IMG/VR virus record: IMGVR_UViG_3300043496_000175
Coordinates: 1-64,000 of that record
Length of the DNA stretch: 64,000 nt
Strand: one strand, 5' to 3'
Source of the DNA: a virus
In this document: positions 16,942-41,368 of the stretch, in pieces
How positions within the stretch are numbered: position 1 is the first letter of the stretch
Layout of the letters: each line of letters starts with the position of its first letter
Made by a program: the position numbers and the translations under genes
The notes under the pieces: model-generated
Told to the model about the DNA's origin: nothing
Database searches by the model: none
The model's input: the letters and a program-made list of their open reading frames with translations, nothing else

Positions 16942-17106
16942 CTACGTCTGCGCCGGAACGCGGACCAGTCCGAGCGCTTCCAGCTCATCGAGCAGAGCGG
17001 CCACGGCCCAGTGTTCCGGTTCCGGCTCGCCCATCTGAGCGGCTTCCACGAGGGCCTTTGCCTGGGCCCGGACCAGGTAGGTGATGAGTGCGTCACGGTT
17101 CTTCAT
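16942..17106 (-). CDS. hypothetical protein
   Basis: ATGA-coupled to HNH gene. Confidence 0.55.
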   Translation of the reverse strand: MKNRDALITYLVRAQAKALVEAAQMGEPEPEHWAVAALLDELEALGLVRVPAQT

Positions 17107-17405
17107 CTTGCCCCCAGCCAACGGTAGGTAGCTTGCCGAAGGGTACCCCGGAACGTGCGAGCGAAGCGGTGCACAGCCAGGTGACAATCCGAGCACAAAC
17201 ACATCAGATCCGCGTCCGGTTCCCGGCCGTGGAACGCCTGCGCGTATGAGAGGTGATGCGCGTGGTTGCGGCGGTCCTGCTTGCCGCATCCTGCGCAGAT
17301 CCAACCCCGGGACTCCCGGAAAGCGCGGCTGCGGGCGGCCCAGGTCTTCGTCCGGGCGTAGCGGTGAATCTTGCGCTGATACTTGCTTTTCTTCCGCAAC
17401 ACCAT
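17103..17405 (-). CDS. HNH endonuclease
   Basis: CAGCG..HAHHLSY..LMCLCSDCH..VH; GGAGG RBS. Confidence 0.8.
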   Translation of the reverse strand: MVLRKKSKYQRKIHRYARTKTWAARSRAFRESRGWICAGCGKQDRRNHAHHLSYAQAFHGREPDADLMCLCSDCHLAVHRFARTFRGTLRQATYRWLGAR

Positions 17406-17422
17406 GCCCTCCAGAAACACCA

Positions 17423-17460
17423 CAACCCCCGGACGCCATTCCGGGGGTTGCTTCCTGCCG
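17423..17460 (+). other. oriT: candidate oriT (inverted repeat plus MOBP-like nic motif)
   Basis: CAACCCCCGGA-CGCCAT-TCCGGGGGTTG immediately followed by CTTCCTGCCG; upstream of mobC. Confidence 0.5.
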
Positions 17461-17568
17461 CACGCGGCCAGGCCGAGGACCGAACCTCGGGGTGTGCGGG
17501 CCAGGTTACTACGAGGGGGTACAGCTGCGATATACCGATTGTGATGACGAACCTCTATACTATTGCGA

Positions 17569-17856
17569 ATGGTCAACAACGATCCCAAGCGCCACCGCCG
17601 GAAGAACGACCCCGGCGGCCGGTCCATCCTGTATCAAATCCGGTTGTCCGAATCAGAGCAGAAGGCCCTTCAGGCCAAGGCCAAGGAGGCAGGGATCACG
17701 GTCGCCGCGCTGCTGGTGACCAGCGCTTTGAAGGACAACCACGCGGTGGAACAGCAGATCCTCAGCTATGAAGCTGAAGCCTTGAGAAGGCAGTTGCAGC
17801 AGGGTAAATGGGAAGACGAGCTGGTGCTCGCCTTGTCTCGAAAGTTGAACCCGTGA
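17569..17856 (+). CDS. mobC: MobC-like ribbon-helix-helix relaxosome accessory protein
   Basis: RHRRKN..QIRLSESEQKALQAKAKEAGITVAALL; GTGA-coupled to relaxase; leaderless TATACT-N7-ATG. Confidence 0.8.
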   Translation: MVNNDPKRHRRKNDPGGRSILYQIRLSESEQKALQAKAKEAGITVAALLVTSALKDNHAVEQQILSYEAEALRRQLQQGKWEDELVLALSRKLNP

Positions 17857-19781
17857 TCATCAAGATCGGTGCTCGGAGTTCTGATCCAGGTGGCCTCATC
17901 CGGTACCTTGCGGACACCCAAGACAGCTCCAGGAAGCCGGGTCGGAACCAGCACACGGACCCTTATGTAGTGACCGGTTCGCTGGGTTACACCGGCCCGA
18001 TGGACCCCGGGATGGTGGCTACGTTGTCCGGCGATCTTCGGGTTCCGACGTTGAAGTTTCCTGACACCTTTCCGAAAGGAAATCAGATCTGGCATGCCGC
18101 GATCGTTTTGCAGCCGGAGGAAGGAAAACTTGACTCGGAGACATGGGAGCGGCTGGCTCAGGATTACATGACGGAGATGGGATTGAACGGTGGCGGGCAG
18201 GTTCCGTTGCGGTGGTTCGCAGTCAACCATGGGGTGAACTCAGCAGGATCCGATCACGTCCACATCGCTGCCAACTTGATCCGGGAGAACGGCATCCAGG
18301 CCAAGGTGTGGATGGACATGCCGCGTTCCCAGAAGGTGGCCATGCTGCTTGAAGAGCGGTATGACCTGAAGGTGGTGGCGTCCAGGTACATGGGTGTTTC
18401 CGCTCGTGGGTATGGCATGAATGATCTCAAACGGGCAGTGAATACCGGCGGGAAGGAGCCACGCCGGATTGAGCTGGAACGCAAGGTCCGGGTAGCTGCG
18501 GTGGGGTCCACTTCGGAAGAGTCGTTCGTGCAGAACTTGGAACAGCAAGGGCTGCGGTTCCGGGGCCGGAAGGACCACAACGGCACACTGACGGGTTATT
18601 CGGTAAACCTGCCTGAGACCACAACGGCGAAGGGGAATGAGCACTGGTGGGCGGGTGGCAAGTTGGCGAGGGATTTGTCTCTGCCACGCCTGCGTCTGGG
18701 ATGGGAGGACAAGACCAGCAACACCCCCAGCCACATCAAAGCGGTGGACGAGCTGGTCTCATTGCAGCGGAGCCTGCCGACCGCTTCCTTTGATCAGGTC
18801 GTTGACGCCTCACACCAGATGGCCGGTGCGCTGGCGGCGGTCTCCCAGGCAACCGAGGACCCTCCGGGCGAATTGGCGAGAGCTTCACACCACGCCGGAA
18901 AGTTCGCTCAGACCCGCACCTATGTGCAGAAACCAAAGCCTCCGGCACTATCCATTGGACTGCTGTTCCTGCAGTGCATGGACCCCGCAGGACCGGTAGG
19001 GAAAACTGTGATGCTGAAGCAGCTCATGGCCACCTACCGTGCACTACTCGATGCCCAGTACGCCCAACGCGGACTGGTAACTGCTAAGGGAGGGATCCCT
19101 GGAATGAGTGAAGCACCCGAAGAGGAACTGGTTCAGATCGGCGTCACCGCCGGTGTGACCGCTGGAGCCATGGTGATGGAACGCCATGCTCGGACCAAGG
19201 AGGCCCGTGCCAAGAATGAGAGAAAAGCTCTAGAGCCGTGGGACGCCAAGGCGATCCGGAAGATGCGGGTCGAGAACGAGTGGCTCCAGGCCACGCAGCG
19301 GGCTGCGCACCGGCCCATTCCGGGGCGGATGACCCAGGCTCAGGCTGACCGGATTCAGGCGCTGGCCGATGAGTTCGAGATGCCCGCGATGGTGGTCGGG
19401 ATTGACCGCTACACCGAGAAGGAGGCTGCTGCCTACATCGAATCCCTGGAGGCGCACAGCACCGGTTACGTGCCGGAAAAGGTGGCGCTGCCGCAGACGG
19501 CTCTGCAGGAATCTGACGCGGTGGAAGCCTTCATGGCTGACCTGGAGGCCAAGCACGGAGACAAGATTCCCGAGCAGGCACAGCCCAGTGAGCCGTCCAC
19601 GGTGGTGCAGCGCAAGTGGCTCACCTCCGTGGCCGGACTCAGCCCGGAGGACGCGGAGAAGATGACCAAGGAAGGTGCCGCCGCGTTCCGCACGCAGATG
19701 GAACAGCGGAACGCGCTGGCGGTTGGTTTGACGCCGGTCCAGACTGCTAAGAACGGTCCCGGGAAGGGGCGTAGCCTGTAA
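17853..19781 (+). CDS. MOBP-family relaxase
   Basis: GLIRYL (catalytic Tyr), IWHAAIVL..E, W..LAQDYM..MG, RWFAVNHG...DHVHIAAN (HUH), GGKLARDLSLPRLR. Confidence 0.9.
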   Translation: MIIKIGARSSDPGGLIRYLADTQDSSRKPGRNQHTDPYVVTGSLGYTGPMDPGMVATLSGDLRVPTLKFPDTFPKGNQIWHAAIVLQPEEGKLDSETWERLAQDYMTEMGLNGGGQVPLRWFAVNHGVNSAGSDHVHIAANLIRENGIQAKVWMDMPRSQKVAMLLEERYDLKVVASRYMGVSARGYGMNDLKRAVNTGGKEPRRIELERKVRVAAVGSTSEESFVQNLEQQGLRFRGRKDHNGTLTGYSVNLPETTTAKGNEHWWAGGKLARDLSLPRLRLGWEDKTSNTPSHIKAVDELVSLQRSLPTASFDQVVDASHQMAGALAAVSQATEDPPGELARASHHAGKFAQTRTYVQKPKPPALSIGLLFLQCMDPAGPVGKTVMLKQLMATYRALLDAQYAQRGLVTAKGGIPGMSEAPEEELVQIGVTAGVTAGAMVMERHARTKEARAKNERKALEPWDAKAIRKMRVENEWLQATQRAAHRPIPGRMTQAQADRIQALADEFEMPAMVVGIDRYTEKEAAAYIESLEAHSTGYVPEKVALPQTALQESDAVEAFMADLEAKHGDKIPEQAQPSEPSTVVQRKWLTSVAGLSPEDAEKMTKEGAAAFRTQMEQRNALAVGLTPVQTAKNGPGKGRSL

Positions 19782-19793
19782 GTACGGGACATG

Positions 19794-19824
19794 GAAAAGC
19801 CCCCGCCTGCGGCGGGGGCTTTTC
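19794..19824. terminator. bidirectional intrinsic terminator
   Basis: GAAAAGCCCCCGCC-TGC-GGCGGGGGCTTTTC between relaxase and tra operon. Confidence 0.85.
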
Positions 19825-20183
19825 TATGCCTGGAATCGGCCGAGAGGAATAACTCCGCCAGGGTCATGGTGCCCGGTTCGCCACTCACATCCGGCGAAGG
19901 TTCCGCCTTCCACACATAGCCGGTCGAACAGCAGCGGGTAGGCGAAGTCCCGTTTCCACACCACCAGATCATCTGGGGAATGCCGCATCGAAGCCAGCTC
20001 CCAGGTTTGCCACAACAGCTTCACCGTGTCAGCGGCTTCCTCATGTTCCTGCCATTTCACGCACCAGATGAGCCTGGTCGGCCTGGCGAACAGCGGAGCG
20101 AGCCGTAGATCGAAGAACTCCACCTCGTTGGAGTAGAGGGGTTCCGGATCCTGCTCCGGCGTGATGGCAAGAGGGCCGGTCAT
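19824..20183 (-). CDS. DUF4913 family protein (actinobacterial conjugative elements)
   Basis: WCVKWQEHEEA..LWQTWE..W..D..G.FAGC. Confidence 0.8.
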   Translation of the reverse strand: MTGPLAITPEQDPEPLYSNEVEFFDLRLAPLFARPTRLIWCVKWQEHEEAADTVKLLWQTWELASMRHSPDDLVVWKRDFAYPLLFDRLCVEGGTFAGCEWRTGHHDPGGVIPLGRFQA

Positions 20184-21892
20184 GCTGGCTCAAACTCTTC
20201 AATGGATGCAGCCACCAGGGGCTCCATCTCCGGGCGTTTGAACCATGGCACGGTGTTCGCCAGGAACGGTCGGCCGCCGGAGAAATGCACCAGGCACTCG
20301 CCCAGCTCGAACGCGGCGATGTCATCAGGTTCCAGCACCGATTCCAGCCGCTGGGAGCTGGACCGGGAGTACCCGTTCTTGCCCTTGCTGGAGGAGGTGC
20401 TGTACTCCGTGACGTAGTGGCGGCCCACCAGATCACTGATCGATTTGAGGAATGTGGGATCGGCTTGACCAGACCCCACGATGCGAATGTTGGAGGCATC
20501 CCACATCTGCTGCATCCCATCCCGGGACCACACCCGGCACCCCTGGGACCAGTTCTGCAGGATCGCCCACGGGCAGATACCACGCGAGCCGTAGTGGGAG
20601 TACAGGTCCGGCAGGTCCTTCAACCGGCACACGTTGGCGACCTCGTCCAGGATCGCCATCAGCGGGATCGGGAGACGTCCGTGGGGGTTCTCGTCCGCGA
20701 ACTCCTCCGCAGCGTCGAGCACCCAGATGGTGAGCGCCGCCGTGAGTGGGCCAGTGGATCCGATGCCCTCTTTGGACAGCGCGATCATCGTGTCCCGCTC
20801 CGAGCGCACGAACTGTTCCGGGGAGAAGCACGGACGCTTATCCAAGATGTCTCTGGGCTCCAGCCACTCCCGGACCCGGGAATTGTTCAGGAACGACACC
20901 ATCTCCGAAGCGGTCCCGAACACACCGGCCCTCTGCTCGTCCGGGGCGAAGTACACACCTTCCAGGGCAGCCGCTGGGAGGACGTACCCGGCCTCCTCCA
21001 GGATCTTGATCGGCCGCTTGTCCCGGGAGTTGGTGAGCCACCGGAACACCTGGGAGATCGGCTGGTCGGAGATGGAGCAGGCCAGCAGTAGACCGGCCAG
21101 CAGGTTCGGTCCGGCGCTGTCGAAGTAGGCGTCCCGTTTGGCGTCGGTAGGGCCGGAGGCGTCCATCCAGATTTTCGCCAGCTTGGTGGCTCGGACTTCG
21201 TCGGTGACGTAGTCGTTGAGATTCAGCCACCAGTCCGGCGTGTTCTTTCCGGTGATCCGCTGTGGGTCGAATACCCACCTCTTTCCGGGGCGGGCACCAC
21301 GGATAGCGTCCGGCAGATCCCGCTTGTTGGTAGTGGCGAACACCACTCCAGGAGCGTTCATGATCATGGGTATGGCGAAGCCTGTGGTCTTGCCTGATTC
21401 CGGTCCCATAATGATGGTGCCGGTCTTGCGGAAGTCGGTGTACCGGTCTTTCTTCCCGGTCATGGTGCGGACCAGCATCACGCCCTTGACATCACCAGTG
21501 GTGAGCCGAGATGCGTCGGACCGTTTGGTGACCGATTCCAGGCTCAGTTCCTCCCCCTTACCGAGGTGGCGGGCCGCCTTACCGGCGTCGGTGAGTTTCG
21601 GTTTGCGCTTCCACAGGTACAGCGCCAGGCCCAGCACCAGAATCGTGAGCGTTCCTACCAGGACGGCGGCGGTCAAGTGCTCCCCCGTCCAAGGGATCCG
21701 TCCCTGCACAACACCGAGGATCTCCCCAGTAGCGACCGTGGGAGGGAACCCTGGGACCCAGTTGCCGGTACGCAGGAACGACGTCAATTCCGTCCAGCCG
21801 TACAGCACCAGCACTGCGCCTACGGCGGCCCCGACCAGGTAGATGTTTCCCTGGCCGGGAGCCGCCGGACGGTTCCTTGTCTTGCCGTTCAT
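20180..21892 (-). CDS. virD4: type IV coupling protein (VirD4/TraG-like)
   Basis: Two N-terminal TMs, Walker A MGPESGKTT, TTNKRD, FDPQ, Walker B ILDEVANV, LYSHYGSRGI..ILQNWSQ. Confidence 0.92.
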   Translation of the reverse strand: MNGKTRNRPAAPGQGNIYLVGAAVGAVLVLYGWTELTSFLRTGNWVPGFPPTVATGEILGVVQGRIPWTGEHLTAAVLVGTLTILVLGLALYLWKRKPKLTDAGKAARHLGKGEELSLESVTKRSDASRLTTGDVKGVMLVRTMTGKKDRYTDFRKTGTIIMGPESGKTTGFAIPMIMNAPGVVFATTNKRDLPDAIRGARPGKRWVFDPQRITGKNTPDWWLNLNDYVTDEVRATKLAKIWMDASGPTDAKRDAYFDSAGPNLLAGLLLACSISDQPISQVFRWLTNSRDKRPIKILEEAGYVLPAAALEGVYFAPDEQRAGVFGTASEMVSFLNNSRVREWLEPRDILDKRPCFSPEQFVRSERDTMIALSKEGIGSTGPLTAALTIWVLDAAEEFADENPHGRLPIPLMAILDEVANVCRLKDLPDLYSHYGSRGICPWAILQNWSQGCRVWSRDGMQQMWDASNIRIVGSGQADPTFLKSISDLVGRHYVTEYSTSSSKGKNGYSRSSSQRLESVLEPDDIAAFELGECLVHFSGGRPFLANTVPWFKRPEMEPLVAASIEEFEPA

Positions 21893-23352
21893 GCCGCCCA
21901 CCGCTTACTGGTCAGGTTGTACTTCTTCTCCATGTCCACCAGCTCGATGTCCACCGCGATACCAGGATGGTTCGCGATCTTGATCAAGCACTTGCCCCGG
22001 CCGGGCGGTGGCCGTTTCTTCTTCGTCTTCTGCGACAAAGTTGGGGGTGTGGTCCAGGAGTTGAGGGTTTCCTTCTCCACGTTCGAGAGCTTCACCGCAC
22101 CGGACAGCCGGGGCATCTGGGAAGCCGGGAGACCGAACGCCACCACCATTCCGCAGCGCTCCACGATGCCGACCGCTTTGGCGCGGTCCTCCTCGGTGGG
22201 CAAAGCGTTCAGGTCTTCCATGGCGTGGCTGGCGTAGGTCACCGCAACGCCCTTGTCACGGTTCAGACGGGTCAGGCCGTCCGCACGGTCCACCAACCCC
22301 ATTCCGGCCCGCAGCGCCCGCCACAGCTCGTCCAGGATGACGTGCACGTTCTGCTGTGGCTCCAGACCGCAGTCCGCGAGGAAGTTGCCGATCGAGATCT
22401 GCCCGAAGCCGATCCCCCAGCACAACATCAGGGCAGCGGCCTGCAGCTTCTGATCGGTGTCATCGATGGAGGACACGTTGAACGCCACATGCTCACCACG
22501 CCGCATCTGCGTGGTGGTCTGCCGGGAGAAGATCTCCCCAATCCCATGCCCCTGGGACAGGGATTCCAGGTCCGCTTCCAGCGTCTCGGTGATCTCCTGA
22601 TAACGCTCCAGCGACCCCCGTGCCACCGCGACCTTCAGCATCTCCGGCGTCGGGTTCTTCACCACCTTCAACAGGTCAGCCAGGATAGGCATCCGGCGGG
22701 TGAAACGGGTGTCCAGGATCCGCAGCGCCTCCGACAGGATCGAGGATTCCCGGGAGGACGGGGCGATGGCCCGGTGAATGGTCAGCAACGTCTCCAGGGC
22801 CGATTGACGGCGGCCTTTGGCTTCTGCCAGCAACTGTTCAGCATCTGGAAGAAACCCGGCGCTGCGCAACCGGGCGCAGGCCTCGTACACGTCGCCCATG
22901 TCCAGGACGTTGATGTACCCACGGCCACGGCCGACCATGATCACCTGCCCGCCGAGTGCCTTGATCAGCTCGGTGTACTCACCCTTGAGGTCCCCCAGGA
23001 CCAGTGACTTCACCCCGAACAGGTCCAGACCCATGATCCAGCGCTTGATCAGGGTGCTCTTGCCCAGAGCGGGCAGACCCAGGATGAATGCGGACGGCTG
23101 GGAGATCAGTTGAGCCCGCTCGAACCAGGACACCGGATCACAGCAGATGACAGCGCCCTTGGACTGCTTGCGTTTCACCCGCCCGATCGGGACACCGATG
23201 GTGGGGGCACTGGAGCCCAGCACGAACGGGAACAGCCCAGCGACCTCATTGCTGGTGCCCCGGTGAAACACCGGGTTCTGCAGGTACTTCCACGCACCGC
23301 CACCGGGCCCGCGCGCTCCCCGGCTGCTGCTCTTACTGCGCGGCCGGAACAT
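21889..23352 (-). CDS. virB4: VirB4-like conjugation ATPase
   Basis: Walker A GLPALGKST, LGDLKGEY, Walker B ILDELWRAL, TRLNR.KG. Confidence 0.88.
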   Translation of the reverse strand: MFRPRSKSSSRGARGPGGGAWKYLQNPVFHRGTSNEVAGLFPFVLGSSAPTIGVPIGRVKRKQSKGAVICCDPVSWFERAQLISQPSAFILGLPALGKSTLIKRWIMGLDLFGVKSLVLGDLKGEYTELIKALGGQVIMVGRGRGYINVLDMGDVYEACARLRSAGFLPDAEQLLAEAKGRRQSALETLLTIHRAIAPSSRESSILSEALRILDTRFTRRMPILADLLKVVKNPTPEMLKVAVARGSLERYQEITETLEADLESLSQGHGIGEIFSRQTTTQMRRGEHVAFNVSSIDDTDQKLQAAALMLCWGIGFGQISIGNFLADCGLEPQQNVHVILDELWRALRAGMGLVDRADGLTRLNRDKGVAVTYASHAMEDLNALPTEEDRAKAVGIVERCGMVVAFGLPASQMPRLSGAVKLSNVEKETLNSWTTPPTLSQKTKKKRPPPGRGKCLIKIANHPGIAVDIELVDMEKKYNLTSKRWAA

Positions 23353-23569
23353 TGCGGGCCTTCCGGGCCGGGCTCGAATCCTTGTGCATCGGGCAGAGGA
23401 ACTCCTTGCCGTTCGGGGTGCGGCTCCAGCCGTTCTGCAGGGCGGTGGCGATGACCGCGTCCAGCTCCCCGAAGTCGGCGTCCGACGTCTGAGCGCAGGT
23501 CGGCTGGAACAGGTTGTTGGTCTTCGCGGAGCAAGAGATCCAGTGGTACTGAGCGGTGTGCGTGGGCAT
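23333..23569 (-). CDS. small phage-type Zn-binding protein inside tra operon
   Basis: GAAGGA RBS; ISCS..C..NGW..FLCPMH. Confidence 0.6.
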   Translation of the reverse strand: MPTHTAQYHWISCSAKTNNLFQPTCAQTSDADFGELDAVIATALQNGWSRTPNGKEFLCPMHKDSSPARKARNVPAAQ

Positions 23570-23570
23570 G

Positions 23571-25103
23571 TCAGATTCCTTCGGAGAGAGCGGTCGGGAT
23601 GTTGAGGTGCTGGCTGGTAACAAGACCCAGAGGACCAATCCCCTGAGCGAACGCCGAATCCTGAGACCCGTTCATCGGGCGCAGGATCAGCCGGGCCGCC
23701 GGGCCCTGGTGTTCCACCACCGCACGGGCTTTGGCGATGTTCTCCTTGCCCTTCACGGTGGCGGTGAGCAGGATCGCGAAGTTCACCAGCGCGGCACCAT
23801 GAGCCTCGTGGTGCCGGGCGGAATCCGCTTCGGTGACCTGCCGGTCCTGCCGGGCGGTGGGTTTCTTCGAGTTCCGCATCCGGCTTTCAGCCGTCCGGTG
23901 GTCATGCTCAGCAATGGTGCCCGCCGCTGCAGGGTCGATCGGCTTGTACAGGAACGTCAGCCGGGACACCGCGACATCCGGAGATGGTTCCAGCACCGGA
24001 CGCAGCACCTTGGAGATCACCCGGCTGGAGATGAACCCCACCACCTCCCAGGTCATGGAAATGGCATCCGAGTGCTGGTAGTAGTCCCAGAACGCTTGCC
24101 CGCCAGAAGGACCGACGCTGTCCCACAAGGTCACCGGTGGTGGTTCACCCTTGGACGCCAGTTCGTCATAGGCCTTGCGGTCCTCCGGGTTGTAGGCGCA
24201 GCGCACGGCTTCGATGACGTCATCGGTGGACATCGGGACCACGGTGCCCGCACCGGTTTCCGGGAGGGTGTCCATCAACTGGGGCAGGCGGTCAGCGATC
24301 AGACGGCCGATGACCTGAGCAGGGTCCTGTCCTTTGATCTTCTTGCCGTGCTCATCGGTCTCCGGTTTCGGGGCCCGGAACGACAAAGTGACGTAAGCAC
24401 GGACAGCAGTGGAGCCCTGCGGGTAGTTCTCCATCACCTCGGCCGCCCATTCCTTGCTCAGGGAGGACGCCTTGGGAGAGGTGTTGTTGGTCAATTCCAG
24501 GGTCAGGCCGGGACCGGAGTCCTGGGTGGTCTCGATCGTCACCGCCGCCTGCATCAGGTACACGGACTCGAACGCCAAGTCCGCCAACCATTCTCCGTAC
24601 TTGGCTACCTGCGCCTCCAAGTCTTCCGGGTCCACCAGGGTGGATCCGTCGGGGTCGGCGGAGATGTTCACCACGAACAGCCGTTCCTTCGGGTATTGCA
24701 GAATCGTGAACGGCTGTCCGTTCTTGTCTTCCCAGGCCTCCAGCGTGGACTCGGACAGAACCCCGGGGAGCTTGTGGCTGCCGAAATGCGTGAGGGTGCC
24801 GGAGAAAAACAGATTCGACCCTTCCCGGCGGGATGCGGCGAAGCCCATCCGGGCACCGACCTTGTCCAGGATCGATTGCTGATTGCGGTCCTTCAGGACC
24901 AGCAGAATCAGCACGCCAGCACCGACCACCGCCACGATCATCGCAGTGACGATGCCTGCGGAGGGGACCAGCAGGATCACGATGAAGGACAGGATCACCG
25001 CCAGGATGGTCCCGACCGGGCCGAAGATCCAGAACCCCCAGCCTTTGGGTTGGTGATAGCCGCCATAGGTTTTGACTTTGGATTCGGCAACAGCAGAAGA
25101 CAT
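23571..25103 (-). CDS. SCO6880-family (PrgI/VirB3-like) conjugation membrane protein
   Basis: TYGGY..P.G, N-terminal TMs, AVRCAYNP, W..GP, YYQHSDA.S.TW, GSQDSAFA. Confidence 0.85.
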   Translation of the reverse strand: MSSAVAESKVKTYGGYHQPKGWGFWIFGPVGTILAVILSFIVILLVPSAGIVTAMIVAVVGAGVLILLVLKDRNQQSILDKVGARMGFAASRREGSNLFFSGTLTHFGSHKLPGVLSESTLEAWEDKNGQPFTILQYPKERLFVVNISADPDGSTLVDPEDLEAQVAKYGEWLADLAFESVYLMQAAVTIETTQDSGPGLTLELTNNTSPKASSLSKEWAAEVMENYPQGSTAVRAYVTLSFRAPKPETDEHGKKIKGQDPAQVIGRLIADRLPQLMDTLPETGAGTVVPMSTDDVIEAVRCAYNPEDRKAYDELASKGEPPPVTLWDSVGPSGGQAFWDYYQHSDAISMTWEVVGFISSRVISKVLRPVLEPSPDVAVSRLTFLYKPIDPAAAGTIAEHDHRTAESRMRNSKKPTARQDRQVTEADSARHHEAHGAALVNFAILLTATVKGKENIAKARAVVEHQGPAARLILRPMNGSQDSAFAQGIGPLGLVTSQHLNIPTALSEGI

Positions 25104-25126
25104 CGGTACTCCTTGCTCGGAACGGG

Positions 25127-26098
25127 TTACTTACGGATTCCGGCCATGACGACCATCGGAGCGGCGCTGGTGACCATGCCGCCAGGCCCGCTGCCTCCGG
25201 AGGCGGGAGCGGTGGCCGGTGCGGTGAGACGCATGGTGGCGGGCAGCGCCAGTACAGCCATCGCGAGGATGGTGATCCCGTAAATGATCTGCAGCAGGCC
25301 ATTGCCAGCGGCGGAGGTGTCGGTCCCGAGGAACCGGAACCCCACGCCGTAGATGGCGGCGGCGATCATCTTGTAGAGGATCAGACCTGCGATCCAGCCA
25401 ATTTGCGTCTTGAACGCCTGTTTGCCACTTTCGGTGCCGGAGGATGCTGCGCCGAACACCAGCAGACCAGTGATGATGAACAGCGCGCCGCTGCGGCCCA
25501 TCATGAGGACCACCTGGAAACAGGCGACCAGCATCCCGATGAACAGCAGTATGAAGATCAAGATCCCGGAGGTGATTCCGGCGGCGTTGTCGAACAGGGA
25601 GAAGAAGTTGTCAGCGAAACTCGTTCCCTCCGTGCTCTTCTCCAGGATGGTGTTGGCGATGTAGTTGGTGACCAGCAGCCCGAACGCGATGGTCGGGACA
25701 GCCAGGGCCACGGTTGCCATGTAGGTGAAGACCATGGACGCGACCAGTTTGACCGGGCCGTTGTTCATTTCGATCATCATGCGGATGACCTGGATCGCCA
25801 TGATGAAGCACATCACCACCGCGCCGATCCAGAGGAGCTGGTTCTGCAGGAACGTGATGACGTCCGCTGTGACACCGTTCTGGTCTACGACAGCAGGATC
25901 AGGAACGTCCTGCCAGAAGGTGAACATCGTCTTGGTGGAGTCAGCGACGCCTCGTTTGGCGTCCTGCACCCATGGTTCGATGACCGAGTTCTCGATGACC
26001 TGCGTGGCGATGCTGTCCGGTTCTTCGCAGCCGGGCATCGTCCACGACGAGAACCAGCCGGTGTCTTCCCCACAGTTGATGGAATCTCCGGGAGCCAT
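25127..26098 (-). CDS. VirB6/TrbL-like polytopic membrane protein
   Basis: About six TMs, LILYK..AA.IY motif, Gly-rich tail; position in tra operon. Confidence 0.8.
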   Translation of the reverse strand: MAPGDSINCGEDTGWFSSWTMPGCEEPDSIATQVIENSVIEPWVQDAKRGVADSTKTMFTFWQDVPDPAVVDQNGVTADVITFLQNQLLWIGAVVMCFIMAIQVIRMMIEMNNGPVKLVASMVFTYMATVALAVPTIAFGLLVTNYIANTILEKSTEGTSFADNFFSLFDNAAGITSGILIFILLFIGMLVACFQVVLMMGRSGALFIITGLLVFGAASSGTESGKQAFKTQIGWIAGLILYKMIAAAIYGVGFRFLGTDTSAAGNGLLQIIYGITILAMAVLALPATMRLTAPATAPASGGSGPGGMVTSAAPMVVMAGIRK

Positions 26099-26919
26099 CA
26101 GGCTGCCCCTCCCCATGGAATGTATGTGCGGTCAGTTGAGTTGTTGACCACCTGATCGGACTTGCTCGGGATCACCATGCGCCAGTCGTTGTCCTCCCAG
26201 GACACGGTGTAGGTCAGGGCGGTGTTGCGTCCGGCGTCCGCCCCGGTGACCAAGGTGTACTGCATCTCGATGCTGGCCAGGGATGCCGAGTAGGAGTTCC
26301 AGCGGTAACCGGAGATCCTGACGGTGGGACGGTTTTCGACCGTCACACCGGTGGCTTCCATCAGGAAGGCGTCGTAGTTGCCTGTGTGCGAGGCGCGGGC
26401 GGTGATGAAGTCCGTTGCCTGCCCGGCGGCGGTGGCTGTCAGGATGCCAGTAGCAAAAGATGCTGTGGCATAGAGCGCACCTTCTGGTGTCCTGGAAAAG
26501 CAAGCCGGGTAAGGGGTTTCAAGGTCCGGACCGGCGGTGGCAGACGTCGGCCGGACCATGTCCCCATCCCTGACCCACACCGTCTCATAGGTGGCGTTGA
26601 CCACCTGTTCTGGTGTGACCTCTTCGGCCTTTTGTTCCTTGCACAGGGAAGGTTCTGCTGCTTCCGGAGCTGCAGAAGTCCCGAGAGTGGCGGACGCCGA
26701 GGGTTTTGCTGCAGCCGGAACCGCTGTGGGTTCCGGTGCAGACGGCGACAGGAAGTACATCGCCAGCAGCGCGATCAGCAGGACACCGATGAAGGTGGCC
26801 GAGATGACTTTGCTCTTCTGACTGACACCCTGCGGTGCCAGCCACCAGCGTGCGGTTCTGGTAGCTCTGTTGTTCTGTGCCACCGCGTTGTAATCAGTGA
26901 CACGGCGGCCCTTGCCCAT
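26098..26919 (-). CDS. VirB8-like bitopic conjugation protein
   Basis: Single TM, Pro/Ala linker, CFSRTPEGAL..ISGYR..VSWEDNDWR (NTF2-like C-terminus). Confidence 0.7.
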   Translation of the reverse strand: MGKGRRVTDYNAVAQNNRATRTARWWLAPQGVSQKSKVISATFIGVLLIALLAMYFLSPSAPEPTAVPAAAKPSASATLGTSAAPEAAEPSLCKEQKAEEVTPEQVVNATYETVWVRDGDMVRPTSATAGPDLETPYPACFSRTPEGALYATASFATGILTATAAGQATDFITARASHTGNYDAFLMEATGVTVENRPTVRISGYRWNSYSASLASIEMQYTLVTGADAGRNTALTYTVSWEDNDWRMVIPSKSDQVVNNSTDRTYIPWGGAA

Positions 26920-27209
26920 CAGGTACCGGTGACGGTTCCGACGAACCCGACGATGACGCCGAAGCCGAGGATCGCGCCGATGATCTTGGCGGCGTGGCCG
27001 ACCGCTTCGTTGCTGCCTCCGGAGCGTTCGTTCTTGAACGCCAGGAAGACGCAGCCTGCGAGCGCGAAGCAGGCAACCGCCGCGACGATCCAGCCGACGT
27101 TGCCCCAGATGGCACCTGTGGTGGTTTTGATCCCTTCGCTGGGGGCGGTCGGGTTGCCCGGGTCGAAAGGAACCGCCGCGAGGCTGTCGTAGTAGAGCTT
27201 GGTGAGCAT
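26919..27209 (-). CDS. VirB2/pilin-like two-TM protein
   Basis: First gene of tra operon; P..P..two hydrophobic helices; AGGAG RBS. Confidence 0.65.
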   Translation of the reverse strand: MLTKLYYDSLAAVPFDPGNPTAPSEGIKTTTGAIWGNVGWIVAAVACFALAGCVFLAFKNERSGGSNEAVGHAAKIIGAILGFGVIVGFVGTVTGT

Positions 27210-27250
27210 GGTGTCTCCTACTCGGTGGGTGGAACTTGTTGACGGAGCGA

Positions 27251-27280
27251 AGCATAGCCACATTGGCCAGATGGGTGCAA
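27251..27280 (-). promoter_or_regulatory. tra operon promoter TTGCAC-N18-TATGCT
   Basis: Divergent intergenic region upstream of pilin-like gene. Confidence 0.55.
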
Positions 27281-27298
27281 GTAGTGCATCATTTACCA

Positions 27299-27499
27299 AT
27301 GCACCCTGATGAACTCCTGCGGGATTGCCCGCCCAAACTCAGCATTGTTGATCTTGCTGCGCTGTTGGGCGTCCGCCGAAGAACGGTCAATAACTGGCTC
27401 AAGCGGAAGGAGAACCCGTTGCCCGGCATCAAGTTTCCCGGTGGATGGGTGATAGACACCGAAGAACTGAGGGCCTGGCTGCTCTCGCTCCACAACTAG
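27299..27499 (+). CDS. excisionase-like/MerR-type HTH (HTH_17) protein
   Basis: LSIVDLAALLGVRRRTVNNWLK..LPGIKFPGGWVIDTEELRAWL. Confidence 0.8.
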   Translation: MHPDELLRDCPPKLSIVDLAALLGVRRRTVNNWLKRKENPLPGIKFPGGWVIDTEELRAWLLSLHN

Positions 27500-27521
27500 C
27501 CTCACCGAGCAGGGGGAACCA

Positions 27522-28634
27522 ATGAGAATCGTCCGAGCACTGTGCGCTGTCCTTGTGCTGCTACTGGCCGGGTGCACTCTCGTGCCCACCGACTCTGGCA
27601 CAACTGGAGGGTCCGGTCCGGCGACGTGCACCGGTGCTCCCACCGGTCTGCGTCCCGAGCAGTTGCAGACCGCTCAAGCGATTGTCAGCGCCGCCTACGA
27701 AGTCGGATTATCCGAGACCGACGCCAAGAAGGCCGCACAGATCGCTATCACCGTCGCTATCACGGAGAGCACCCTGGGTGCGGGTATGCCCTTCGGTCAG
27801 TTCAACAAAGGTGACGTCTCCTCCAACGGTGTCCCCACCACGTCACGGGGGCCTTTCCAGCAGAAACAGGAGTGGGGGCCGATAGTCGATCGGCTCGATC
27901 CCAACAAGAGCGCCAAGATGTTCTTCACTGGTGGGCAAGCTGGGCAGAAGGGTCTGCTGGACGTAGCCGGATGGCAGAACATGGCACCAGAGATGGCCGC
28001 CGAGGCCGTGCAGGGCTCCCGGCAGGGCGGGGCGAACTTCGCCAGGAACCTTGCGCAAGGGACAGCGGTCGCGGACTCCATCACCTGCGTAGCTGGCGCT
28101 GCAGGCAGCGTGGTGGCCAACGGCGTCAGCGTGACCCTGCCGAACAATCAGTTCGTCGCTGAAGCCGTCAGAGGCAAGACCGTCACCGCACCGAACGCCG
28201 GGATAGCCAAAGGCTTGGCCGCTGGACTGAGTCACCTCGGCAAGCCGTATGTCTGGGGCGGGGGTGGGGACGGAGAAGGACCGAACAACGGCTGCGCGCG
28301 GGGTGGTGGGCAGCTCAACTCCTGTGGCTCCGAGATCGGGTTCGACTGCTCCGGTCTCACTGCCTACGTTCTCGTGCAAGGTGGATTTCCTAGTCCCGGA
28401 GGAAACTCCGGTGCTCAACGCGGTGGGGGTACCAGCGTCGCCTATGCTGCAGGCCTGGCGGGTGACATCGTTGGATTCCCAGGCCATGTGGCCTTGTTCC
28501 TCGGGGTTATCGACGGCACGCAGTACATCCTGGAGGCATCCACCGTCGGTGTCCCTGTGCATGTGGTTGCATTGACGAGATCCGATCGAGACCCCATGTT
28601 GCATCGTTACTGGTCCCAGGGAGCTGTTTCATGA
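27522..28634 (+). CDS. lipoprotein cell-wall hydrolase: lysozyme-like plus NlpC/P60 (conjugative VirB1 analogue)
   Basis: Lipobox LAGC; TES..SRGPFQQ..WG..DP; GKPYVWGGG, FDCSGLT, GHVALF. Confidence 0.88.
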   Translation: MRIVRALCAVLVLLLAGCTLVPTDSGTTGGSGPATCTGAPTGLRPEQLQTAQAIVSAAYEVGLSETDAKKAAQIAITVAITESTLGAGMPFGQFNKGDVSSNGVPTTSRGPFQQKQEWGPIVDRLDPNKSAKMFFTGGQAGQKGLLDVAGWQNMAPEMAAEAVQGSRQGGANFARNLAQGTAVADSITCVAGAAGSVVANGVSVTLPNNQFVAEAVRGKTVTAPNAGIAKGLAAGLSHLGKPYVWGGGGDGEGPNNGCARGGGQLNSCGSEIGFDCSGLTAYVLVQGGFPSPGGNSGAQRGGGTSVAYAAGLAGDIVGFPGHVALFLGVIDGTQYILEASTVGVPVHVVALTRSDRDPMLHRYWSQGAVS

Positions 28635-28852
28635 GTGCTGCCACCCGCAGGCCCTACCTCGGGGAGACCGTGCACGTACAAGGTGAGTCCGCGCAGCGAG
28701 GTAGGCAGTGCCGCCCCGCGTTCGTGACAGCTATGAAGGATGACTCGATCGAGCTGTGGGTGCTCGCTCGGCCGCAGCCTCGGTACGTCGATGACGCACC
28801 TCATGATGAGGCAGAGCGCATCAAAGGATCCTGGCACTTCGCCAGTCACTGA
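28631..28852 (+). CDS. small phage-type hypothetical protein
   Basis: ATGA overlap with NlpC/P60 gene; P.LGE.VH..C.PA.VT..GSWH pattern. Confidence 0.65.
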   Translation: MSAATRRPYLGETVHVQGESAQRGRQCRPAFVTAMKDDSIELWVLARPQPRYVDDAPHDEAERIKGSWHFASH

Positions 28853-28867: not shown

Positions 28868-29239
28868 ATGACGTCCCTGGAGCGCAAGAACTCCCCCGTG
28901 GAGAACATCCAGGCTGCCTGGAAGATTCTGGCCAACGGTGCCACCGTCGCCGCCAACACGCTGGTCGAGATCTCTCGGGACGGGGAAAGCGAAGCCGCCC
29001 GCAACCAGGCCTCCATGGCGATCCTGGACCGCGTAGGAATCTCTGCGAAGCCGGAGGTCACCGTGCGGGTGGTGCCTTCCGAGTACTCCGGAGAAGGTCT
29101 GGCTGAGGGCGGCATGACGCAGGGCGAAATCGTCCGTAAACGCCTGCTCGAACTGGCGGCGGCTACCGCTGCTGAAGCTGAACGTCAGCAGCAAGAAGCT
29201 GAGACCATCTACGACGCCGTGATCGTGGAGGAGAGTTAG
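28868..29239 (+). CDS. putative terminase small subunit
   Basis: A..L..A.NTLVE..E.AR.QAS.AILDRVG helical motif; upstream of TerL; leaderless TATCCT-N6-ATG. Confidence 0.5.
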   Translation: MTSLERKNSPVENIQAAWKILANGATVAANTLVEISRDGESEAARNQASMAILDRVGISAKPEVTVRVVPSEYSGEGLAEGGMTQGEIVRKRLLELAAATAAEAERQQQEAETIYDAVIVEES

Positions 29240-29532
29240 ACCTCCGGTGCGGCGTGTGCTCCCGGCTCATCGACCACCTGGACAGACTGTTCGAGCTGGT
29301 TCGGCCGCAGCAGCGCGATGATCGGGCTGCCAATCGCGGACAGCACGAAGGCACCGATGACGAAATAGCTCTTCACCTGCGTATCCAGGTCCGGGATCAG
29401 TGCCGGGATGCCCGCCAGAGCCGCCAGGATGCCGTTGTAGATCGCGACCGCGAGGGCCTTGCTGGTGGTGGTGGGAGGCGTGTCCGAACCGGCCGGGAGG
29501 ACGGTTCCGACAGCAAGAGGGGTGCCAGCCAT
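29236..29532 (-). CDS. two-TM holin-like membrane protein
   Basis: SKAL.V.., two TMs ending ..RPN; GAAGGAG RBS. Confidence 0.5.
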   Translation of the reverse strand: MAGTPLAVGTVLPAGSDTPPTTTSKALAVAIYNGILAALAGIPALIPDLDTQVKSYFVIGAFVLSAIGSPIIALLRPNQLEQSVQVVDEPGAHAAPEV

Positions 29533-29563: not shown

Positions 29564-29779
29564 TTACTTCTTGAACAGCGGATTCCCCGAAGCCCGGAAC
29601 CGTTTGATGTGGTAAGCGAACCAGGCGTCCATCTCCAGGAAGGATCCCTTGGGGGAGTCTGTGATGTCCAGACGCTCCAGGTAAGTGGTGAACTGGTTCA
29701 TCTCGGTCCTGTCCAACCCGCTGACCTTCATCGCCGCGTACATCGCGAGGGCAGGGATTGGGATTTCAACGCCGGTCAT
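29564..29779 (-). CDS. hypothetical protein
   Basis: ATGA coupling. Confidence 0.55.
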   Translation of the reverse strand: MTGVEIPIPALAMYAAMKVSGLDRTEMNQFTTYLERLDITDSPKGSFLEMDAWFAYHIKRFRASGNPLFKK

Positions 29780-29937: not shown

Positions 29938-29979
29938 GGCGCGAGTATAGCCAGATCGGTCAACGAGAGGATGATGGAG

Positions 29980-30552
29980 ATGGCAACAGAAGCACGGTAC
30001 GGCTGGGAGCTTCCCGATCTCGCGGATGTGGCGGACGGTCCCGATGCGTTCCTGCAGTTCGCGAACGATGTCTCCGACACCATCTCCAACACCACCGTCC
30101 AGACTTACACCCCAAGCTGGACCAGCCTCACCAGTGGCGGAAACCCTTTCGGTGTAGCAACCCGCTCCGGGCATTACCGAATGCTGAACAAGGTTGTGGA
30201 CTTCGTTGCCCGGCTGACTTTCGGGTCCGGGACCAGTGGTGGACTCGGGGAGCTGATGGTGGGACTCCCTGTCCCGGCGAACTCCTCCACGCAATACGTT
30301 GTGAACTGCATTCTGTGGACCCCCTCATCCGGCGGAACCTGGCTGGGGTATGGGGCGATCGACCAGCAGTCCGGGTTCACCAATATGCGTCCCCAGTTTC
30401 CCATCAACAATGCCCGCTCTGACATGTCCGGCTGGGCATCTACCGGCGGAATCCTCGGTTTGAGCATTCCAACCGTGCCGAGTAACCCTGGTGGGTACTC
30501 CGTCATGAACGGTGGGTACTTCACTGCTCATGGGCGGTACTTCGCAGCGTGA
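29980..30552 (+). CDS. putative minor tail/virion protein
   Basis: RYGWELPD..D.P..F..A..D N-terminus, YTPSW..G.YR..V..LP beta-rich domain typical of actinophage tail-fibre proteins. Confidence 0.6.
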   Translation: MATEARYGWELPDLADVADGPDAFLQFANDVSDTISNTTVQTYTPSWTSLTSGGNPFGVATRSGHYRMLNKVVDFVARLTFGSGTSGGLGELMVGLPVPANSSTQYVVNCILWTPSSGGTWLGYGAIDQQSGFTNMRPQFPINNARSDMSGWASTGGILGLSIPTVPSNPGGYSVMNGGYFTAHGRYFAA

Positions 30553-32018
30553 CCGCTGATCTGTCCCTGGAGCATCAGGTTGCGCTACTTCCCAAGGATC
30601 AGCAGGAAGCCATCCTGGCTGACCTGGACATGGAAGCGCTCCCATATGACTGGACCTGGGGCGGGAGACCTAGTCAGCTCCTGCCGGTAGAGCCGGATGC
30701 TAGTTGGACGGTGGCGCTCGCTCTGGCCGGTCGTGGATTCGGTAAGACCCTGATGGGGTCTCAGTGGATCCGCATGCTCGATCAGCAATGGTCACACTTG
30801 CGGTGGGATACCGCACACATGCGGTTCGCGCTACTCGGGCGTACCGCCGCCGACGTCCGTGACGTCATGCTGGAAGGCCCCTCCGGGCTGCTTAACATCT
30901 ACCCGCCCTCATTGCAGGACCAGGTGATCTGGACTCCTACCCGCCGCAGAATTGAACTCCCCGGTGGTGCGGTAGGGTTAGTGAACTCAGCGGAAGAGCC
31001 AGATCAGTTGCGTGGCCCCGCTTTTCACATCGGGTGGTCAGATGAGACCGCCAGCTACAAACAAGTCCGGTCCATGGCTGAAGGCAACCTGACCGCCTGG
31101 GAGAACCTCCGGATCGCGGTCCGGCTCGGAACCCACCCGCAGATCCTGGCCACCACCACCCCCAAGCGGATCCCGCTACTCAAAGCGTTGCTGGCCGAAG
31201 CTCACGATCAGCCGGAAAAGTTCATTCTCCGACGGGGCAAGACCACCGACAACGTCAAGCTCTCCTCCGGCTACCTGGATACCCTGTTCGGCCTGTACGG
31301 CGGCACCCAGCTCGGTAAGCAGGAGCTGGAAGGGGAGATGCTGGATGACGTCGTCGGAGCCATGACGTCGGAAGCCATCATCGAGCAGTACCGCGTCACC
31401 GGCCTGCCGATCGGGATCCCTTGGATCAAGATCGTCGGAGTGGACCCCTCAGTCGCTGAAAAGCCGCACGATGAGTGCGGCATCGTGGTGGTCTACATCT
31501 CCAACACCTACCCCGTGCTCAAGCGACACGCCTTCATCGTGGAGGACCTGTCCCTGCGAGCCAGCCCCACCGTCTGGGGTGATGTGGTAGTCCGAGCAGC
31601 GCACGAACACGGTGCAACAGTGGTGGCCGAAACCAACCAGGGAGCCAACCTGGTCAAGCAGATGGTGCGGCAATCCGCTGCCGCAGCCAACCTGCAGAAC
31701 CCACAGATCCGGGAAGTCTGGTCCTCCAAGAGCAAGTCGGTCCGGTCCGAACCTGTCGGCGGTGCCTACGCCCGTGGACGCATCCACCACGTTAATTTCC
31801 TGCCCGAACTTGAAGACCAGATCGGGACCTGGGTCCCGGGAGAAAGTGGCTACTCCCCGGACCGGATGGACGCACTCGTGCATGCCTGCGCTGCCGGTAT
31901 GTTCCCCGAGGCATTGATCAACGGTGCACCGGGAAGTACTACCTTGCACTCGGTGGCCAATCAGCGGATCCCCCTGACTCACCAGGTGGCCTTGCCTGCA
32001 CGAAGAGGTGCGATGTGA
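30549..32018 (+). CDS. terL: terminase large subunit
   Basis: LAGRGFGKT Walker A, LRGP.F..GWSDE, TTTPK, QELEGE, VGVDP, SPDRMDAL. Confidence 0.95.
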   Translation: MTADLSLEHQVALLPKDQQEAILADLDMEALPYDWTWGGRPSQLLPVEPDASWTVALALAGRGFGKTLMGSQWIRMLDQQWSHLRWDTAHMRFALLGRTAADVRDVMLEGPSGLLNIYPPSLQDQVIWTPTRRRIELPGGAVGLVNSAEEPDQLRGPAFHIGWSDETASYKQVRSMAEGNLTAWENLRIAVRLGTHPQILATTTPKRIPLLKALLAEAHDQPEKFILRRGKTTDNVKLSSGYLDTLFGLYGGTQLGKQELEGEMLDDVVGAMTSEAIIEQYRVTGLPIGIPWIKIVGVDPSVAEKPHDECGIVVVYISNTYPVLKRHAFIVEDLSLRASPTVWGDVVVRAAHEHGATVVAETNQGANLVKQMVRQSAAAANLQNPQIREVWSSKSKSVRSEPVGGAYARGRIHHVNFLPELEDQIGTWVPGESGYSPDRMDALVHACAAGMFPEALINGAPGSTTLHSVANQRIPLTHQVALPARRGAM

Positions 32019-33579: not shown

Positions 33580-35166
33580 ATGGGTCTGTTCACGCGCGAG
33601 GTTTCACCGGCAGAAGTGCCCCCGGTTGCCGGTCGCCGCGCTCGCAGCGCGAGCTGGGGACAGCACCGCGCGATCACCGCTTCAGCGGAAAAGATCAACC
33701 TCAAAAACCCGCTGATGCTGCAGGTTACGCAGAATCAGGCCGAGTGGCAGACCGCAGCCTGGACCGGCTACAACCGCGTCGGGGAAATCCACTACGGCTT
33801 CGGTTTGCTGGCCAACCTGCTCTCCCGCGTCCGCATCTACGCCGCCGTGGTGAACGAGTCCAACGAGGCCCCCAGCGACCTGTCCCAGCTCGAAGACGAC
33901 GATCGCATCTCGGAGAATCTAGCCGAAGCAGCCACTGCCGCGATTGCCGAATTGACCCTCAAAGACTTCGCCAGTTTCGTCCGCAAGTTCAGCCTCAACA
34001 TGTCAGTACCGGGAGAGTGCTACCTGGTGCACATGCCGCCGGTCGAGGGCGGCGAGAAGGCCTGGATCGTCTGTTCCAAGTCCGAGCTGGTGATCCGGAC
34101 GGACAGCATCCAATACCTCCCACTTCGGGGCGGGCAACGCCGGGAACTCCCCAAGGACACCTACGTCGCCCGCATGTGGCGGCAGTCCCCGGAGTACACC
34201 ATGGAGGCAGACTCCTCCATGATCGGTGTGCAGGACAGCGTCGAAGAGCTGCTCCTCTGCCAGCGACTGACACGCGGAGCCGCCCGCTCCCGGATGAACG
34301 CCGGTGTGTTGTTCATCCCGGATGGCATCACCACCGCCCGGACCGGGGCCACTGCTGAAGCCGTCATCGAAGAACCCGACGACGACATCTCCGGTCTCAC
34401 AGCCATGGCTCAGCAGGACCCTCGCGGGGACATGGTCAACCAGTTGATGGACGCCATGGTCACCCCGATCGGTGATGAAGGCAGCGCCGCCGGTGTCGTG
34501 CCCCTGGTGCTGGTCGGGCCCACGGACCAGGGCATGGGAATCCGGCATGTGTCCTTCGAGCGGAACACCGACGAGTGGTTGGTGAAGCGCGGGGAGATCG
34601 CGCTCGACCGGATCCTGCAAGGCATCGACATCCCCAAGGAAGTCGTCACCGGCATGCAGGCGGTGAAGTACTCCAACGCAGTGGTGATTTCTGAGGATCT
34701 GTACAAGGCCAACGTCGAGCCCCTCGCACTGGTGCTTGCGGATTCCCTGACCACGGTCTATCTCCGGCCAGTGCTTAAAGCCGCTGGCTTTACCGATGAG
34801 CAGCTCAAAGAGATCGTGGTCTGGTACGACCCCAGTGAGATTGTCACCCGCCCGAACAGCTCCGAATCCGCCACTCAGGGCGTGGATCGGAATCTGCTTT
34901 CCCATAAGGCCTGGCGGCGGGAACATGGCTACGCCGAATCCGATGCGCCATCATTGGAGGAGATCGCCCTCTCCAAGCTGGCGGAGCTACCGGAGGCTGT
35001 GCAGCTTCAGGTGCTGGCCAAAGTGTTCAAGGGCTTTGTTGATGTTGATGAGGATCCGGAGCCCGCTCCGCAGGAGAGGGCTACCGCGCGTCCCTTGGCT
35101 GCGGTCAAGGACGACACCGAGAAAGACCCCCAACGAGTCGCGATTCAACAGGTAGGGATCAAGTAA
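33580..35166 (+). CDS. portal protein
   Basis: WQ..AW..Y..VGE.HY..SRVRIY, VPGECY, SR.NAGVLFIP, SAAGVVP; position after terminase/MuF. Confidence 0.85.
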   Translation: MGLFTREVSPAEVPPVAGRRARSASWGQHRAITASAEKINLKNPLMLQVTQNQAEWQTAAWTGYNRVGEIHYGFGLLANLLSRVRIYAAVVNESNEAPSDLSQLEDDDRISENLAEAATAAIAELTLKDFASFVRKFSLNMSVPGECYLVHMPPVEGGEKAWIVCSKSELVIRTDSIQYLPLRGGQRRELPKDTYVARMWRQSPEYTMEADSSMIGVQDSVEELLLCQRLTRGAARSRMNAGVLFIPDGITTARTGATAEAVIEEPDDDISGLTAMAQQDPRGDMVNQLMDAMVTPIGDEGSAAGVVPLVLVGPTDQGMGIRHVSFERNTDEWLVKRGEIALDRILQGIDIPKEVVTGMQAVKYSNAVVISEDLYKANVEPLALVLADSLTTVYLRPVLKAAGFTDEQLKEIVVWYDPSEIVTRPNSSESATQGVDRNLLSHKAWRREHGYAESDAPSLEEIALSKLAELPEAVQLQVLAKVFKGFVDVDEDPEPAPQERATARPLAAVKDDTEKDPQRVAIQQVGIK

Positions 35167-41351: not shown

Positions 41352-41368
41352 TAGTGCACGACTGGCTG

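Follow-up and report, generated by a model that had tools for sequence, protein, structure and literature searches.

Can a tailed phage carry a complete mating system as a built-in part of its genome? Phages and conjugative elements are usually viewed as two separate routes by which self-transmissible DNA spreads, and according to a 2025 review no element that combines virion and conjugative spread has been found. The question is raised by IMGVR_UViG_3300043496_000175 (G000), a single IMG/VR viral contig of 107,206 bp. Its first 64 kb (the window, the whole stretch of DNA under study) hold a set of relaxase and type IV secretion system (T4SS) genes beside the terminase, capsid and tail genes of a phage. 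We conclude that G000 is probably the near-complete ~107-kb genome of an uncultured, non-integrating siphovirus-type phage with a high-GC Gram-positive (actinobacterial-type) host. As part of the same conclusion, the 11 kb between its early/nuclease genes and its terminase would be an inherited, fixed, relaxase-dependent conjugation module of this phage lineage that serves for transfer. More generally, a predicted full mating system is part of the core genome of a diversified phage lineage, represented among others by the contig G001, and was gained independently in a second lineage, represented by the contig G007.

The initial annotation described a conjugation gene set at 17.4-28.6 kb made of intact open reading frames (ORFs) with catalytic motifs, and profile matches and motifs confirm it. 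Genes in the window were called with a codon-bias model because of the high GC of the DNA. The features of the module and its left border are as follows (window coordinates, strand).

17103-17402, minus: small HNH endonuclease, divergent, adjoining the candidate origin of transfer (oriT)/mobC region.
17403-17568, no strand: candidate oriT/promoter region, a divergent intergenic region upstream of mobC with a perfect 11-bp-stem hairpin at 17423-17451.
17569-17856, plus: MobC/NikA-like relaxosome accessory protein (PF21983, E 3.5e-8, above the cut-off), with a homologue in the same position in G001.
17853-19781, plus: relaxase of the MobA/VirD2 nuclease family, 642 aa (PF03432, 30.9 bits against a cut-off of 24.6; NCBIfam MobB, E 1e-10).
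19790-19828, no strand: hairpin I19 with 18-bp arms, 94% complementary, between the convergent relaxase and DUF4913 genes.
19824-20183, minus: DUF4913 protein (PF16259, E 1e-13); its gene adjoins that of VirD4 in G001, G007 and many metagenome loci.
20180-21901, minus: VirD4-type coupling protein (T4CP), 573 aa, with one N-terminal transmembrane (TM) segment (PF12696 (TraG-D_C), E 5e-32; PF02534 (T4SS-DNA_transf), E 7e-19; PF10412; NCBIfam CD1115).
21889-23352, minus: VirB4-type (DUF87-like) transfer ATPase, 487 aa (Walker A GLPALGKS; NCBIfam CD1110 VirB4-like, E 1.4e-11).
23333-23569, minus: small conserved 78-aa protein with no assigned role; a 51% identical copy stands in the same place in locus L039.
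23571-25103, minus: SCO6880-family protein (NF042935, E 2e-105), with N-terminal TM helices followed by a VirB4-like fold that lacks Walker A.
25127-26098, minus: polytopic membrane protein in the VirB6 position, with five TM segments predicted from hydropathy, a weak SCO6881 match (E 5e-4) and conservation in T4SS loci.
26098-26919, minus: bitopic protein with one TM segment and an NTF2-like domain (VirB8/TcpC-like architecture; hydropathy and fold model).
26919-27209, minus: 96-aa protein with two TM segments by hydropathy, VirB2/VirB3-like by size and topology only; a 34% identical copy is found in L040.
27522-28634, plus: NlpC/P60 secreted lipoprotein wall hydrolase with a C-terminal NlpC/P60 domain (PF00877; NCBIfam RipA/RipB-like; lipobox LAGC; catalytic Cys).

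All module ORFs are intact and tightly packed, with junctions of -4, -13, -20, +1, +23, -1 and -1 nt. The relaxase has a HUH-type nuclease domain with a catalytic tyrosine (N-terminal Tyr18) and a His motif (DHVH, in ...SDHVHI...), and is 34% identical to the relaxases of G001 and G007. Its description as a MOBP relaxase stands as far as the relaxase is concerned (PF03432); MOBP was not discriminated from MOBQ. Three Pfam coupling protein families cover the full length of VirD4, and the DUF4913 protein is the usual partner of actinobacterial VirD4. The VirB4-type protein combines a Walker A motif with a VirB4-like NCBIfam match. PDB sequence searches with the relaxase and VirB4 gave no useful match. 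Hairpin I19 looks like a bidirectional terminator; a consensus promoter/terminator scan stayed at chance level.

Some of the channel proteins call for other labels than they were first given. The SCO6880 protein had been called PrgI-like, whereas its structural model (pLDDT 75, pTM 0.75) matches R388 TrwK/VirB4 over ~420 columns (E 3e-10, probability 1.0). This suggests that the widespread SCO6880 family is VirB4-like by fold, a hint to the function of this actinobacterial family. In G000 the protein, without a Walker A motif, adjoins a separate active-looking ATPase. For the bitopic protein, labeled VirB8-like, nearly all top folds found with its model (pLDDT 75) are NTF2-like, including TcpC of pCW3 (3ub1), at weak E values of 0.01-0.05. 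The genes labeled VirB6-like and pilin-like are present, with labels that come from hydropathy. The NlpC/P60 hydrolase is predicted to have a VirB1/CwlT-like role. In phage relatives it is 54-74% identical and stands directly upstream of the terminase.

The phage side of G000 starts immediately at the right border of the module.

28631-28852 (plus), 28868-29239 (plus), 29236-29532 (minus), 29564-29779 (minus) and 29974-30552 (plus): small phage-lineage genes that link module and terminase, with the same genes and order in L121, L123 and L128.
30549-32018, plus: large terminase, TerL (PF03237, PF17289, phrog_38).
33580-35166, plus: portal protein (phrog_776, E 2e-92).
38544-40160, plus: major capsid protein (phrog_777, E 6e-82).
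40203-48243, plus: major tail protein (40203-41351), tail assembly genes and tape measure protein (43909-48243, 1444 aa) (phrog_792, tape-measure PHROGs).

The ATGA overlap by which the NlpC/P60 gene had been said to run into a phage-type ORF (28631-28852) is real. In the virion gene order a MuF-like gene lies between TerL and portal, and a LysM-domain protein gene lies downstream, beyond the tail proteins. Terminase, portal, HK97-type capsid, major tail protein, tape measure protein and lysis genes thus stand in one genome. The capsid is 38-44% identical to those of Arthrobacter, Microbacterium and Gordonia phages. Large actinobacteriophages with a phrog_777 capsid in this identity range, namely Arthrobacter phage Atuin, Gordonia phages GMA2 and Sixama, and Actinomycetia phage DSL-LC01, have a similar siphovirus-type module and genomes of 100-190 kb. 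Elsewhere G000 encodes a family A DNA polymerase (PolA), a PD-(D/E)XK nuclease, AAA_24, DUF669, a DnaB-N protein and a dNMP kinase. SNF2 helicase, prim-pol, DUF3987, TROVE/Ro60, several glycanases, lysis genes and many small early genes complete the picture.

The ends of G000 carry a 326-bp direct repeat with 96.3% identity and 12 mismatches (window 1-326 against genome 106881-107206). Given this near-identical end repeat, we regard the contig as essentially complete. The repeat probably fits a circular or terminally redundant genome, with a slightly mixed population or strains in the assembly. The contig is listed as 'linear' in IMG/VR, with a CheckV completeness of 87%.

Tyrosine recombinase (PF00589), serine recombinase (PF00239), ParA (PF13614, PF01656) and ParB had no match anywhere in the 107 kb, and we found no recognizable plasmid Rep or resolvase in G000. 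Direct repeats flanking the module occur at chance level. The lack of an integrase reported for the window extends to the whole record. G000 has neither the integrase/recombinase and bounding attachment (att) repeats of an integrative and conjugative element (ICE) or a phage-ICE tandem nor the partition and/or plasmid replication genes of a phage-plasmid.

A search for relatives with phage and conjugation genes in the same synteny found them. The capsid of G001, a 65-kb IMG/VR contig, is 62% identical to that of G000. In order, G001 has SNase, MobC, relaxase, DUF4913, VirD4, the T4SS block (inverted), NlpC/P60, g56 and TerL, and continues through tail and lysis genes. Its proteins are 30-73% identical to those of G000 throughout, with no internal stops, and homologues of the NlpC/P60 gene, of 28868-29239 and of TerL follow each other in that order. 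G006 comes from a different sample and matches G001 at 99.99% identity over a 21-kb stretch that covers both modules. L121 and L123 (TerL 78% identical) begin with NlpC/P60 (66-74% identity), followed by the same small genes and TerL. The position and order of the module are kept in relatives down to 63% TerL identity.

Five further links between VirB4 and TerL or portal come from three protein searches (VirB4, TerL, portal) that returned identical 'longest contig' sizes. Percentages are identities to the G000 proteins; a dash means no value for that search.

35,295-bp contig: VirB4 71%, TerL 77%, portal -.
17,636-bp contig: VirB4 63%, TerL 65%, portal -.
19,504-bp contig: VirB4 56%, TerL 64%, portal 47%.
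32,464-bp contig: VirB4 70%, TerL -, portal 66%.
92,805-bp contig: VirB4 58%, TerL -, portal 50%.

Such exact coincidences of size from the same sources are unlikely by chance. An empty site in close relatives was sought, as were an integrase and att repeats, and none was found; only a distant sister clade of ~85-kb genomes is without the module. These genomes have no T4SS gene upstream of TerL in the stretch viewed (10 kb in L129 and L130; ~4 kb in L127). VirD4 and SCO6880 are absent throughout G002 and G003 (86 kb, CheckV 100%), whose capsids are 46-49% identical to that of G000. No match was obtained in a TerL scan of 185,579 species genomes, in a single-protein VirB4 scan of viral contigs, or in a first metagenome scan with NlpC/P60 patterns.

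Comparison of the VirB4 and TerL trees, proposed as a check in the initial annotation, separates the VirB4 of G000 from its organism-attributed cellular counterparts. The closest of the 1569 VirB4 homologues (96% down to 54% identity) come from metagenomes only, and organism-attributed homologues start at ~52%. In the VirB4 tree, a 35-row clade (SH-aLRT 96) unites G000 with all three TerL-linked sequences and contains zero organism-attributed sequences. Its sister is a 32-row clade holding every organism-attributed cellular homologue. In the TerL tree, all T4SS-linked rows lie in one 18-row clade (SH-aLRT 89), separate from the ~85-kb clade without a T4SS. This 18-row clade includes contigs of 102-117 kb, and most of its members are shorter fragments; TerL of G002 branches outside both clades. 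A megablast of the module found no match in phages and only ~85-bp VirB4 matches in plasmids.

The usual setting of such genes is different. Nearly all of 80 metagenome loci with VirB4 homologues have several of VirD4, VirB4, SCO6880, g51, g52 and NlpC/P60, and none of the 80 has phage genes. By gene content these are the usual ICE- or plasmid-type loci. Because the NlpC/P60 hydrolase recurs in loci free of phage genes, it belongs to the T4SS set and not to the phage lysis genes.

Within G000 the module is indistinguishable from its surroundings in composition and codon usage. There is no break in GC or tetranucleotide composition (tetranucleotide correlation of module and rest 0.966), and codon usage of the conjugation genes correlates with that of the structural genes at 0.955, above the value for early against structural genes. 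At least 22 start codons in G000, mostly of early-arm genes, are preceded at a distance of 16-21 nt by a motif, CCGAGCA(A)(A)GG(A) (e.g. window 1424, 1680, 6777, 8474, 25120 and 27505; genome 97893-107156). It resembles sequences associated with gene starts in cluster K mycobacteriophages. In the module it precedes two genes, SCO6880 (17 nt upstream of its start) and NlpC/P60, whose start we placed at 27522 on account of the motif at 27505. The motif was not seen in G001, a contig without the early arm. A rough NG86 estimate of dN/dS against L039 and L123 homologues gave 0.29 for VirB4, 0.30 for SCO6880, 0.23 for NlpC/P60 and 0.15 for TerL; by this measure the module is under purifying selection.

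The second case, G007 (IMGVR_UViG_3300025875_000590; L114, L199; L200-L204), is an 87.2-kb contig with 74.6% GC and a CheckV completeness of 96%. Its phage-side genes are TerL, a portal-MuF fusion, a phrog_777 capsid (E 2e-158), major tail protein, tape measure protein, endolysin and RecT, and a ParA-like gene adjoins the capsid gene. We found no tyrosine integrase in it. The conjugation genes (relaxase, DUF4913, VirD4, VirB4, SCO6880 and hydrolase) lie between the portal and capsid regions, unlike in G000, and its VirB4 falls in the 'cellular' clade. This unrelated phage-plasmid-like contig gained a similar conjugation system independently. The combination of phage and mating system appears to be evolutionarily stable and not just an accident, since it has been kept in one lineage and gained independently in a second.

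How might a phage use such a module? In an infected or carrier cell, the relaxase would nick an oriT in the mobC-proximal region and VirD4 would deliver the complex of relaxase and single-stranded DNA to the T4SS. The whole phage genome would then enter a touching cell, besides ordinary virion spread. Because G000 is without lysogeny and partition genes, the model needs either early expression in the latent period or maintenance functions of unknown type. The more specific version is tentative: a virulent-type lineage may express the relaxase and T4SS early and pass its whole genome to touching cells during the latent period, an 'infection by conjugation' that we consider possible but would not presume. 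If true, it would bypass receptor dependence and free-virion dispersal in dense actinobacterial growth and leave long-range spread to virions.

Several observations weigh against an inherited module that transfers the phage genome. The initial annotation's candidate oriT is a hairpin-bearing intergenic region with a fold z-score of -1.69, which is not significant, and it has no motif in common with the G001 equivalent. No lysogeny, partition or plasmid-replication functions were found in G000, and survival of the donor until mating is hard to explain. VirB4 of G001 is 40% identical to that of G000 and sits unplaced on a very long branch between the two clades. That position is compatible with joining the phage side; being so divergent and unplaced, it also means that the module may have been exchanged within the phage lineage. 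A 116.8-kb contig whose TerL is the closest full-length match (80%) does not appear among the 120 VirB4 matches listed, all at least 51% identical. The five further VirB4-TerL/portal links rest on size matches and not on contigs read directly.

The first of these observations gives some room to the alternative that the module is kept but does not transfer the phage genome. It might be a device for protein/effector secretion or for the cell envelope, a mobilizer of other DNA, or a rolling-circle relaxase. The module is conserved and under purifying selection, and its candidate oriT has no significant fold. The phage is already equipped with a complete virion route and a replisome of its own, and a preprint reads the relaxases of some phage groups as replication proteins (10.1101/2025.11.07.687105). 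However, MobC, relaxase, DUF4913 and VirD4 together with a full mating-channel set are the signature of DNA conjugation, as in ICE- and plasmid-type loci, and the element acted on by a coupling protein and relaxase is normally the one that carries them in cis. We consider such a role unlikely, though it is the most serious competitor to a module that transfers the phage.

The lack of recognizable maintenance genes bears on another alternative, in which G000 is mainly a conjugative plasmid or phage-plasmid with a long extrachromosomal life, its phage genes are the second route, and its maintenance functions are of an unfamiliar type. Many small early genes of G000 have no annotation, and the independent T4SS and capsid element G007 does have a ParA-like gene. 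The pZL12 element of Streptomyces combines tra genes with a phage cycle, using the Streptomyces Tra system and not a relaxase/T4SS. Against this, G000 has no ParA, ParB or recognizable plasmid Rep, while its large replication set (PolA, PD-(D/E)XK, AAA_24, DUF669, SNF2, prim-pol) is usual in lytic phages. The zero TerL relatives in 185,579 species genomes also speak against it. We find a primarily plasmid-like element doubtful, and more so than a module with another role.

Synteny in the relatives, independent assemblies, trees, composition and motif together strongly disfavor both a recent insertion and a chimera. Recent insertion or cointegration of an ICE or plasmid in this single phage genome, with the module as passenger DNA, would account for a gene set that is otherwise that of an ordinary actinobacterial ICE/plasmid T4SS, and for the more distant ~85-kb relatives without it. 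It does not account for a module that keeps its place and gene order in relatives with as little as 63% TerL identity, for the missing integrase and flanking repeats, for composition and codon usage indistinguishable from the phage, for the phage start motif on two module genes, or for a phage-linked VirB4 clade apart from the cellular one; we rate it as very improbable. An assembly chimera of a phage and a plasmid/ICE from one sample, conceivable for any metagenome contig such as G000, is scarcely credible when both junctions recur in G001 and G006, assemblies of two samples that agree at 99.99% identity, the right junction is seen again in L121 and L123, five further contigs are linked by size, GC and tetranucleotide composition show no break, and genes overlap across the right border. 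The initial annotation's proposal of one phage replicon with built-in conjugation genes is thus supported by a single near-complete contig as well as by relatives, independent assemblies, composition, codon usage and motif.

Known systems resemble a phage with an inherited conjugation module in part. T4SS-type ICEs of actinobacteria have been described (Ghinet/Bordeleau et al., PMC3218068, PMC3429521). Actinobacterial ICE and plasmid T4SS loci, including the 'ATP/GTP-binding protein' + SCO6880 + VirD4 loci of Microbacterium, Georgenia and Pseudoclavibacter, match the G000 module in gene set and for the most part in order (VirD4, the VirB4-type ATPase, SCO6880, the polytopic and the bitopic membrane protein, and NlpC/P60). 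DUF4913 and a relaxase are often present as well, and identities are 25-53%. Unlike these elements, G000 has no integrase, att site or plasmid backbone, its module is inside a tailed-phage genome, and its VirB4 belongs to a separate phage-linked clade.

Phage-ICE tandems are two integrated elements joined by site-specific, integrase-dependent accretion, which their authors do not regard as hybrid elements (Huang et al., Sci Adv 2026, PMC13651849). They too have phage and conjugation genes physically joined and potentially co-transferred. G000, in contrast, is one genome without integrases or att sites, with fixed synteny in diverged relatives and a common start-associated motif. Phage-plasmids of the P1, N15 and SSU5 groups (Pfeifer et al., 2021, PMC7969092) likewise have virion genes and plasmid-type functions on one DNA molecule, whereas G000 is without partition and plasmid-replication genes. 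The Escherichia coli element p1002-1, described as a conjugative plasmid fused with a phage-plasmid (10.1101/2025.03.14.643293), is a single fusion, whereas G000 belongs to a lineage. The Streptomyces plasmid-phage pZL12 is cited in PMC4487206. In one 41-kb region examined of Streptomyces plasmids with distant capsid homologues there is no T4SS. Among 50,697 GenBank phage records, homologues of VirD4, VirB4, SCO6880 and the relaxase occur only in short unannotated faecal fragments and two Streptococcus records.

Virions and cell-to-cell DNA transfer may thus both serve the spread of this phage and its relatives. Conjugative transfer could explain how phage genomes spread beyond the host range defined by receptors, and the trade-off between lytic and contact-dependent transfer becomes testable. 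Classifiers that sort sequences into either viruses or plasmids would mis-sort such elements.

Outside the window, G000 has a tRNA-Pro(TGG) and a tRNA-Thr(TGT) gene near the TROVE/Ro60 gene (genome 86815-86888 and 89882-89952). A minus-strand block at genome 67-86 kb encodes two GH16 proteins, a GH81 protein, a 1204-aa BppL_N-containing fibre-like protein and a DUF2807 adhesin-like protein. In this phage group several TerL genes are intein-invaded: their products have 679-847 aa and contain Hint, intein or LAGLIDADG domains (P0123, P0155, P0157, P0158, P0177, P0218 and P0224).

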